Shown here: piece by piece, positions 56,082-57,591 of the stretch
Numbering within the stretch: the stretch's first letter is position 1
Layout of the letters: each line of letters opens with the position of its first letter
Assembly (NCBI GenBank): GCA_017934745.1
Contig: JAGBIY010000030.1
Span: 2,244 to 66,243, forward strand
Direction of reading: 5' to 3'
Source of the DNA: Treponema sp.
GTDB taxonomy: Bacteria > Spirochaetota > Spirochaetia > Treponematales > Treponemataceae
Length of the DNA stretch: 64,000 nucleotides
The notes under the pieces: model-generated
The model's database searches: none
The model's input: the letters and a program-made list of their open reading frames with translations, nothing else
Told to the model about the DNA's origin: nothing
Made by a program: the position numbers and the translations under genes

Positions 56082-56167
56082 ACGGAACATTATAACGAAA
56101 TGCGCTCAGGTCTTGCACGGGAACACGCGAAAAGTCCAACGGGGAAGCAAAACGGCAAAAAAAGTAA

Positions 56168-56397
56168 AAAGAAGAATTCGCCTTGGAAATCACATTTTCG
56201 GGCAATAGGGTTTACAGTTTCCGCGAAGCAAAGACGCACTACCTTGCTTGCCTTTCATAAGACCTGCCTTGCACAGCGACCACTAGGGTGCTACTGCGCG
56301 GTTATTTACGGTTGCTTTCTTTCGACCGCCTAAGCGGTCTCTTTAAAGCAACCGTTTTTTTTGCTTAGTTAGAACTGGAACGCACAACACGGAAACC
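56168..56397 (-). repeat. Conserved 3' module of FGE gene 1 (copy 2 at 59595..59809)
   Basis: 72-bp block 56326..56397 matches 59739..59809 except for one T; further conserved blocks extend to 56168. Confidence 0.9.
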
Positions 56398-56505
56398 AAG
56401 GAAGTCGAAGCGGCGGTACGGGCTGCCGCAGCTCCGGAGAGACACGGCGCAGTCGCCCGCACCGCCGCTCCAGGAACCGCCGCGCCCGACGCGGACAGAG
56501 CCGGA
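56365..56505 (-). other. Candidate DGR variable repeat VR1
   Basis: Against VR2, 15 of 17 non-synonymous codon pairs keep the same third base (14 NNC, 1 NNT) between invariant codons. Confidence 0.75.
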
Positions 56506-57591
56506 AGCGGCACCGGCGGCGGCAGTGGAATCTGAAATTGTTCCAGACCAGTCCCAGCACAATTCCCATACGTTTCCGCTCATGTCGTAAATGCCCAGGG
56601 CATTTGCACTATCTGTGCCAGTAACTTTATCTGTTTTTACTTCGTGTGTTCCGTAATCTGGGTCACTACTTCCTTTGTTATAGGAATTTTCTCTATACCA
56701 TGCAACATCACCTATAGTATCGCTTCCGCTGTAAGTTGTGGTAGAATTGCCGGCTTCCCTTGCTATGTATTCCCATTCTGCTTCTGTTGGCAGGCGGTAG
56801 CCGTTGGCAGAGGTGTTCATTATTATTCCGCCGTCTTCGTCACTTTCGCCCTTATAGTCCCATGCAGAACTTGTGATTGAAGGCCCGCAGTATTTTGTTT
56901 CTGCATCTCCTACAATACCGCTCCATTTTGCAGGGTCTGTTTCACCTCCCAGTGAATATACCGGGGTCAATCCTTCGTCAATAGAACGCAGGTTACAGTA
57001 GACCACAGCATCATACCAGTTTACATAATAGGCAGGGTAATTGTCGCCAAGTCCGCGGGTATCATCAGGACTTTCTGAACCATACTTGCAGTATTTTTCG
57101 TATTCAGATTGGGTAACTTCGTGGTCGCTAACATACAGGTCATCTATGGTAAGGCTCCTTCCGCTTACAAACACCTTTGATGAAGGGGTCCAGCTTTCAT
57201 CACCTTTTATTGTGGTGCCGGTAACTTTTACAAAGTCCTTAACAGTTAACCACTTTACCTTAAGCGTAACATCTTCTTCAATTGCCGCGGCAAAATCAAA
57301 GGCCGAATCGCCATTGTACCAGCCGTTAAATGAATAGCCTGTCTTTGTTGGGTTTGTTGGCTTTGTGGCGGTCTTACCACTTTCCACTGTTTGGCTTGCG
57401 ACTTCGCTTCCGCCGTCGCTGTCGAAGGTCACAGTGTAAGTCGCTACAGCTACGTTTTCTGAACTTTCAGTGGTTACAGCTGTGGTCCCTGAATTTCCTT
57501 CGGAATCACTGCTTCCTGATGAGCAGGAAACAAAGCTCGCAGTCAGTGCCGCGCACAAAGTAAGCGCGAAAGCCCCAAAGAATCTTCACAT
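56365..57591 (-). CDS. FGE-sulfatase (C-type lectin fold) lipoprotein with InlB B-repeat; candidate DGR target; in-frame TGA at codon 2
   Basis: Lipobox SFVSC, YTVTFDSDGGS...KTGYSFNGWY repeat, DHEVTQ, YRLPTEAEWEY, YDMSGNVWE, RGGSW, GFRVVR. SD-led ATG at 57591 is followed by TGA; the remaining frame is intact. Confidence 0.85.

Follow-up and report, generated by a model that had tools for sequence, protein, structure and literature searches.

A shared 3′ tail of two Treponema lipoprotein genes and its probable origin as a DGR deletion scar

Two FGE-type lipoprotein genes (A and B) in a rumen or gut Treponema have in common a 3′ tail of approximately 200–230 nt, which is a mosaic of four pieces, grouped here in three segments: an IMH with A-run and hairpin (segment 1), the truncated 5′ half of an element that is whole and structured in relatives (segment 2), and the end of a DGR reverse transcriptase (RT) gene joined to a shortened leader-like cassette (segment 3). 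We interpret this composition as the deletion scar of a target–TR–HRDC–RT cassette, which duplication and gene conversion later carried to further paralogues, rather than as a single functional element, and give this interpretation a probability of roughly two in three. The window, that is the whole 64,000-nucleotide stretch that was analysed, corresponds to C40:2244–66243 of genome G000, an assembly of 73 contigs that is 95.9% complete. Coordinates refer to the plus strand of the window; both target genes lie on the minus strand, and the tail, the module in their 3′ flanks, is read 5′ to 3′ on that strand (Table 1).

Table 1. Features of the two target genes and of their shared tail in the window.
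Feature	Position	Strand	Description or basis
Target gene A	56365–57591	−	lipoprotein, Flg_new and FGE-sulfatase domains
End of gene A: IMH-like invariant block GGTTTCCGTGTTGTGCGTTCCAGTTCTAAC and stop codon (56365–56367)	56365–56400	−	34/34 identical to gene B
A8 run between stop codon and hairpin, copy A	56355–56362	−	A8 also behind the VR of G167
Long hairpin (DGR target inverted repeat), copy A	56309–56354	−	predicted fold; conserved in C68, L046
Segment 2 of A: 5′ half of type-2 VR 3′ element, ..CCGCGCAGTAGCACCCTAG.. to ..GGTAGTGCG	56236–56308	−	alignment with intact elements
RT gene tail of A: (GCG)TC TTT GCT TCG CGG AAA CTG TAA = (A)VFASRKL-stop	56212–56235	−	in frame with RT C-terminus in G061
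Collapsed carB-leader cassette of A: −35 region (TTGCCC), then terminator 5′ arm; 3′ arm missing	56168–56211	−	comparison with long form; no terminator called
Target gene B	59777–60943	−	lipoprotein, Big_2 and FGE-sulfatase domains
End of gene B: IMH-like block and stop codon (59777–59779)	59777–59812	−	paralogue alignment
A7 run, outer-stem 5′ arm and degraded hairpin of B (only CCGC-TTAG-GCGG pairs)	59734–59776	−	alignment, fold
Segment 2 of B: 5′ half of type-2 VR 3′ element	59663–59733	−	alignment
RT gene tail of B: (A)VFASRKL-stop	59639–59662	−	homology to G061/G127 RT
Collapsed carB-leader cassette of B with intact intrinsic terminator	59574–59638	−	13-bp stem 59580–59611, then T run

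Composition of the shared tail

Alignment of A and B bears out the original prediction that the two genes share a module far longer than an IMH plus hairpin. A near-identical block (56326–56397 and 59739–59809) spans the gene end (GFRVVRSSSN and stop), the A-run and the hairpin and differs, as had been claimed, by a single base, the T/A run being of eight in A and seven in B. Similarity also continues past the hairpin, with 56168–56301 matching 59595–59728 at 90% without gaps; a 14-nt deletion in copy B separates the two matching blocks. The gene bodies (74–87% identical) are indeed more divergent than the tail (89–96% among copies). Three further, partial copies are present in G000, so the similarity is not due to chance and the possibility that just two copies exist no longer applies: C59:1010–1148 contains segments 2 and 3 with the terminator, C68:97207–97314 contains segments 1 and 2 and lacks segment 3, and C18:50323–50400 contains segment 3 and the terminator only. 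The C59 copy lies behind the gene end of an FGE paralogue (GFRLVRSSQ and stop) and the C18 copy behind an Lcl_C/DUF1566 gene. Shuffling of 3′ ends has taken place among the target paralogues. Across 338 genus genomes and the collection scans, the composite tail was found only in G000 and its close relative L046. An Rfam 15 search of the module returned nothing at E ≤ 1, in agreement with the earlier failure to assign it to a known RNA family. A plus-strand ORF at 56100–56333 (77 aa) was dismissed as a coding explanation, as the 14-nt deletion breaks its frame in B, which has no matching ORF.

In both target genes the FGE-sulfatase (C-type-lectin-fold) domain is C-terminal, preceded by Flg_new in gene A and by Big_2 in gene B. 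The paralogue VRs differ mainly at codon positions 1 and 2, around invariant scaffold codons; no TR for comparison is present in the assembly, and heterologous TRs give 13–34 non-A mismatches with the G000 VRs. Gene A reads ATG TGA AGA TTC at its start (57586–57591, minus strand), with a TGA at codon 2 (57586–57588), where the paralogues and the L046 orthologue read MRRFF or MRKFF. The longest ORF begins at an internal TTG (57558), which deprives the lipoprotein signal peptide of its n-region; possibly gene A is a pseudogene.

Segment 1 comprises GGTTTCCGTGTTGTGCGTTCCAGTTCTAAC-TAA (GFRVVRSSSN and stop), a run of seven or eight A and the hairpin, which is in its long form in A, C68 and L046. 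The IMH block, invariant between A and B, is the same in C68 and L046, and this VR end is near-identical to that of the intact type-1 DGR in G167. The hairpin GACCGC-CTAA-GCGGTC, claimed for the module, exists in A, where it caps a longer hairpin that had been missed (CGGTTGCTTT...AAAGCAACCG): a 10-bp outer stem CGGTTGCTTT/AAAGCAACCG, a 5 × 5 internal loop, and the 6-bp GACCGC/GCGGTC stem closed by the loop TTAG. Copy B pairs only as CCGC-CTAA-GCGG, its stem being reduced to 4 bp; since its 5′ side is of the A type but its 3′ side of the G061 type (GCGGAAGAGCGAA), it appears to be a recombinant within the hairpin. Elsewhere the stems vary with pairing kept (CTTCCGC/GCGGAAG in G061 and L047; GTGCCGC/GCGGCAC in G167). 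Segment 1 thus has the appearance, at the sequence level, of a known kind of DGR target signal, and of the whole tail just the first ~90 nt (IMH, A-run, hairpin) resemble parts known to act in retrohoming.

Segment 2 retains, of the small hairpins in the window copies, only P0 and P3, the latter mismatched in A. The copies in A, B, C59 and L046 all end in mid-element at ...GGTAGTGCGTC (...GTGCGTC), with the 3′ strands of P1 and P2 and the hairpin P4 missing, and because this 3′ half is missing the long helices cannot form in the window copies.

Segment 3 opens with the last eight codons and the stop codon of a DGR RT gene (AVFASRKL and stop). Its second part, beginning CCCTATTGCCCGAAAATGTGATTTCCAAGGCGAATTC..., contains a strong terminator (13-bp stem and T run) in B, C59 and C18; homology in copy A stops in the terminator loop, such that an intrinsic terminator is recognised in B and not in A. 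In unit B the mRNA probably still stops at this terminator. Between unit B and a Schlafen/AlbA_2 gene, at 59357–59443 on the plus strand, the TD-2 RNA motif of Rfam is matched weakly (39.9 bits against a gathering score of 48.7), in overlap with a 15-bp palindrome.

Relatives of the tail segments

A relative of segment 3 is in G061 (= G093:C24), one of two other Treponema in which a pattern scan of species genomes located it. The tail segment matches the RT end and downstream sequence of G061 at 90% over 69 nt (E = 3e-21), and the G061 stretch ends an ORF, ...GNTKRRMKKKLHEIQKDYDAGKISEDKMCEWAMAVFASRKL and stop, whose C-terminus is 69% identical over 39 aa to the intact RT of G127, with AVFASRKL and the stop in frame. 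The intact G127 RT reads ...KAVFASRKLINAELIETANA and stop, KAVFASRKLINAE... and stop, and ...KTKRRMKNKLSEIQKAYESDKISEEKALERTKAVFASRKLINAELIETANA and stop; the RT C-terminus of G229 reads ...LAVFAVRNL.... In G061, on one strand, a target is followed by a hairpin, the first ~50 nt of segment 2, an interval of 1.3 kb, the RT C-terminal tail and the short cassette. The interval contains an inserted PIN toxin–antitoxin pair, an accessory-gene stub (MSQFQSFFIAAN and stop) and an N-terminal RT fragment (RVT_1). The G061 locus probably represents this cassette in a less advanced state of decay; in the window the two ends abut. The PIN toxin/antitoxin-like gene pair itself occupies L012:7365–8023, between the target gene and the RT remnants.

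Segment 3 also occurs behind an Lcl_C gene in another species (L008) and behind an unrelated ORF (G065). The C18 copy in G000 follows a gene with Lcl_C/DUF1566 and Big_2 domains. At C18:50480–50620 a second gene-end remnant, VCAVRAFN and stop, is found ~90 nt behind the end of this gene (SVCTVRAF and stop). Its match to the end of the gene in the L008 species points to replacement of a cassette at the C18 locus too.

The last ~45–65 nt of the tail are the short form of a cassette whose unannotated long form, of ~160 nt, consists of TTGCCC, a 17-nt spacer, TATAGT, a body of ~110 nt with a 23-codon ORF, and the same terminator. The short form lacks everything between two 9-nt direct repeats (GTGATTTC), so that the −10 box and the ~110-nt body with its ORF are lost and the −35 region and terminator kept; the same inter-repeat deletion arose independently in L059. 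The long form is present in 82 of 338 genus genomes, mostly as a single copy, and stands directly upstream of carB in 24 of the ~33 loci with enough flanking sequence. An Rfam search with it gave nothing credible. In the window no carB follows, and G000's own carB is preceded by a diverged version of the cassette (C41, upstream of ~7265). Examples of the long form, with a sigma-70-like promoter, are L058, L060–L067 and L092–L119 (e.g. L061:1365–1535, minus strand), and the leader ORF reads MKTEQCIYMTILKTCVCGFHFYL and stop; the cassette looks like a leader-peptide attenuator. That it is DGR-specific, as its frequent position behind lectin-fold genes had raised, was dismissed, the cassette being primarily a carB leader.

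Relatives of segment 2 were found by a metagenome scan and two genus-wide searches, with BLAST recovering all full-length copies of the element in the 338 genus genomes. Segment 2 lies directly behind type-2 FGE gene ends (GFRLVRS[AS]Q and stop) in G229, G136, G199 (twice), G143, G145, G139 and L047; in C59, segments 2 and 3 come immediately behind the gene end, the TAG stop of which is inside segment 2. The loci with intact elements, immediately 3′ of type-2 VRs, are L069:338–445 (G229), L070, L068, L073 and L047. Six full-length copies of ~95 nt were folded with RNAalifold into a structure of 32 pairs, with helices of 11–12 bp (long-range), 6 bp and 3 bp, a 3-bp hairpin and a pair of mini-hairpins (GYRC-GGNA-GYRC and CCGC-GGTA-GCGG). 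The arrangement that defines the type-2 element, in which the long-range helices P1 (~11–12 bp) and P2 (6 bp) surround a pair of small hairpins with GGNA loops, is not present in the window copies. Over a set of six sequences from ~2–3 lineages, including one recombinant with mismatches (G199a), pairing extends to 95.3% of cells and compensatory changes are seen at 10 of the 32 pairs; none of 500 shuffles reached the observed pairing or covariation score, and slid controls gave 21–50% pairing. Rfam searches with the intact element yielded nothing credible, and we found no description of a ~95-nt multi-helix element of this kind in the DGR literature.

Segment 2 therefore appears, from these alignments, to be the 5′ half of a real structured element with covariation support in relatives. 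The proposal of one undescribed structured element accordingly fails for the 230 bp as a whole, which are a mosaic, and survives for segment 2 in so far as it derives from such an element. The intact ~95-nt form might, as a tentative and rather doubtful suggestion, be an extended target-recognition module of this DGR class, a structured platform in place of the single BPP-1-type hairpin; segment 2 of the window would then be its truncated remnant, and loss of the 3′ half together with the RT would have frozen these genes. To our knowledge, target recognition in HRDC-type Treponema DGRs has not previously been studied.

In the intact DGR of G229 the order is VR (185–340), a 104-aa ORF, TR (835–990), HRDC gene and RT; VR and TR differ at 19 positions where the TR has A and at none elsewhere, the corresponding numbers in the intact DGR of G136 being 25 and 0. 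VR/TR homology ends at the stop codon in G229 and ~12 nt past it in G136, and segment 2 is behind the VR only in both, which rules out an extended IMH that would also stand behind the TR. The 104-aa ORF between VR and TR (MSILTKKDCGDR...) is conserved (L069:492–806; L070:2027–2341) and has no Pfam match. At C68:97300–97345 and in L056 (G143) a second GGCTTCCGC(A/G)TTGTTCGC block (GFR[IV]VR) is located behind segment 2; this block may derive from the 3′ end of a template repeat that has been deleted. In the intact type-1 DGR of G167 the TR is 165 nt downstream of the VR end and precedes an HRDC-type accessory gene and then the RT; the spacer was considered as a relative of segment 2 and dismissed, as there is no resemblance. 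The G167 TR carries an insertion of ~32 nt relative to the VR (L044:4550–4585, minus strand), which holds an inverted repeat (CACAATCA...TGATTGTG) and adjoins the IMH*-like end on its upstream side.

Origin of the tail

No DGR core accompanies the targets in G000. A family search of the assembly gave no RVT_1 match; tblastn with RT and HRDC proteins of relatives detected no remnant of either gene; and TR searches with the real VRs and with a synthetic AAC-rich TR matched only the VRs themselves. None of the available TRs is cognate, each having 13–34 non-A mismatches to the G000 VRs. A complete DGR (RT, TR and accessory gene) is thus lacking from the assembly, at 95.9% completeness and in 73 contigs.

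The ancestral locus would have been an HRDC-type DGR in which a target with VR and IMH preceded the hairpin, the VR 3′ element, the TR (perhaps after a small ORF), the HRDC gene, the RT and the leader-like terminator cassette. A deletion would have fused a point halfway along the VR 3′ element (...GTGCGTC) with the last eight RT codons (GCG GTC TTT...), within a microhomology, GCG(G)TC, common to both sides; TR, HRDC gene and almost the entire RT would have gone with it. Copying and recombination among the FGE lipoprotein paralogues A, B and C59 would then have distributed the scarred unit, and under the scar model this is why the tails resemble one another more closely than the gene bodies do. 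The mosaic make-up, the homologies, the lack of an RT and a TR in the assembly and the truncation of the structured element are observed; a single deletion, this sequence of events and the absence of an independent role for the tail are the parts of the model that we infer.

Identities along the paralogues are uneven. Over the upstream 300 nt they are 98% between A and D and 82% between A and B; in mid-CDS, 95% between C59 and the L046 orthologue of A, 87% between B and D and 78% between A and B; and in the tail, 89% between A and B, 90% between B and C59 and 96% between A and its L046 orthologue. L046 is a syntenic contig, 98% identical over the Schlafen/AlbA_2 gene, which carries unit A with the same scar and lacks unit B, a leader-like remnant standing alone at the B site; unit B is, to judge from this comparison, an indel between G000 and L046. 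Pieces of the tail also occur apart, in the other contexts of C59, C68 and C18. Paralogue recombination together with past DGR-driven divergence of the VRs explains the contrast between tail and genes without any special element. Nothing suggests that the tail marks genes as targets or moves the VR module, as had been proposed; ordinary paralogue recombination explains the mosaic.

The absence of unit B, with its leader and tail, from so close a relative is what would be expected if the tail were a neutral by-product of a recent segmental duplication of leader, gene and tail, with no DGR-cassette history beyond the IMH and hairpin, and the leaders of both units do share a block of 49–61 nt. 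We regard this as quite unlikely, as the mosaic identities already contradict it: divergence is highly uneven, with 74–78% identity in the CDS, 100% in the IMH and 89% in the tail, the N-terminal domains differ (Flg_new vs Big_2), and the tail holds a fragment of an RT gene and pieces that sit elsewhere in other genomes. The greater similarity of the tails than of the gene bodies could instead reflect function of the whole ~200 nt as a 3′ UTR element, of RNA or DNA, acting in cis on the targets in mRNA stability or termination or as a recognition platform for a DGR in trans. The predicted folds are more stable than those of shuffled sequence (z-scores −3.2 and −2.3), segment 2 comes from an element with real covariation, and the IMH is identical in three genes, as expected if one TR served them all in trans. 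Fold stability, however, comes from the known hairpin and the terminator; segment 2 lacks the strands with which it would pair, the 14-nt deletion in B takes half of the hairpin, and A is without the 3′ arm of the terminator. With the RT and TR missing from the assembly, no Rfam match, and the composite limited to one species-level lineage, such a function is unlikely.

The 5′ boundary of segment 3 is nearly constant across its settings, which are the FGE genes A, B and C59, the Lcl_C gene of C18 and L008, the decayed RT of G061 and the unrelated ORF of G065. This would suit a small unit, mobile or captured repeatedly, in which the RT tail, the short cassette and the terminator insert together downstream of surface-protein genes with a lectin fold, in the manner of a MITE or as a terminator cassette. 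Segment 3 has neither terminal inverted repeats nor target-site duplications and is at low copy number (1–4 in each genome), the longer form from which it derives is a leader present in single copy ahead of carB, and its internal deletion between 9-nt direct repeats arose independently in L059; we consider an origin of this kind highly improbable.

Several observations count against the scar model itself. We found no genome in which an intact type-1 IMH and hairpin are followed by a type-2 element and TR, and because an intact cassette of that layout was not found, the ancestral layout is reconstructed, not observed. Segment 3 of C18 and L008 starts at almost the same base (GTGCGG/TC) in a non-FGE context, which a single deletion alone does not explain; a secondary conversion event or chance is needed. 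The tails of A, B and C59 are 89–90% identical, and those of A and its L046 orthologue 96%, values compatible with some constraint. The RT and TR could, moreover, lie in the unassembled part of the genome.

If the scar model is correct, it outlines a route of DGR death, in which TR, HRDC gene and RT are removable in one deletion, and hypervariable surface-protein genes are left frozen with their homing signals kept and with a datable scar that spreads by gene conversion. A VR flank fused to an RT tail would serve as a sequence marker that distinguishes a core deleted in cis from a remote target of a DGR elsewhere. The scar itself is ordinary DGR decay; the more novel lead is the intact element in relatives, to which it points, a covariation-supported multi-helix structure downstream of VRs in HRDC-type Treponema DGRs.

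Comparison with known systems

In the Bordetella phage BPP-1, target signals comprise an IMH and, downstream of the VR, a GC-rich inverted repeat (hairpin/cruciform) with a 7–10 bp stem and a 4-nt GRNA loop (Guo et al. 2011, PMC3240598). The Treponema sites resemble these in the invariant VR end, identical in several targets, and in a GC-rich inverted repeat with a 4-nt loop shortly downstream, the stem of which varies in sequence among relatives with pairing kept. They differ in that the sense-strand loop is TTAG and not GRNA, in that the stem, beginning ~30 nt past the stop codon, has 6 bp plus a 10-bp outer stem in A and 4 bp only in B, and in that both the cognate TR and the RT are missing from the assembly. 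The end of the tail is like leader/attenuator cassettes upstream of biosynthetic genes, here the carB leader of the genus, with which it shares the −35 region and the intrinsic terminator.

A further parallel is T. denticola, in which an HRDC-type DGR (‘Architecture C’) has remote targets (Wu et al. 2018, PMC5758913) and isolates keep target genes without RT and TR (Nimkulrat et al. 2016, PMC4891356). In G000, as in T. denticola, the targets are FGE/C-type-lectin-fold lipoproteins, several and dispersed, which remain after loss of the core, and relatives of G000 carry an HRDC accessory gene overlapping the RT, as in the HRDC-type DGR of that species. We found no earlier description of a junction between an RT tail and a VR 3′ flank. 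Unlike in T. denticola, the host is a rumen or gut Treponema, and core loss has left a recognisable junction, the last eight RT codons fused to the VR 3′ flank.
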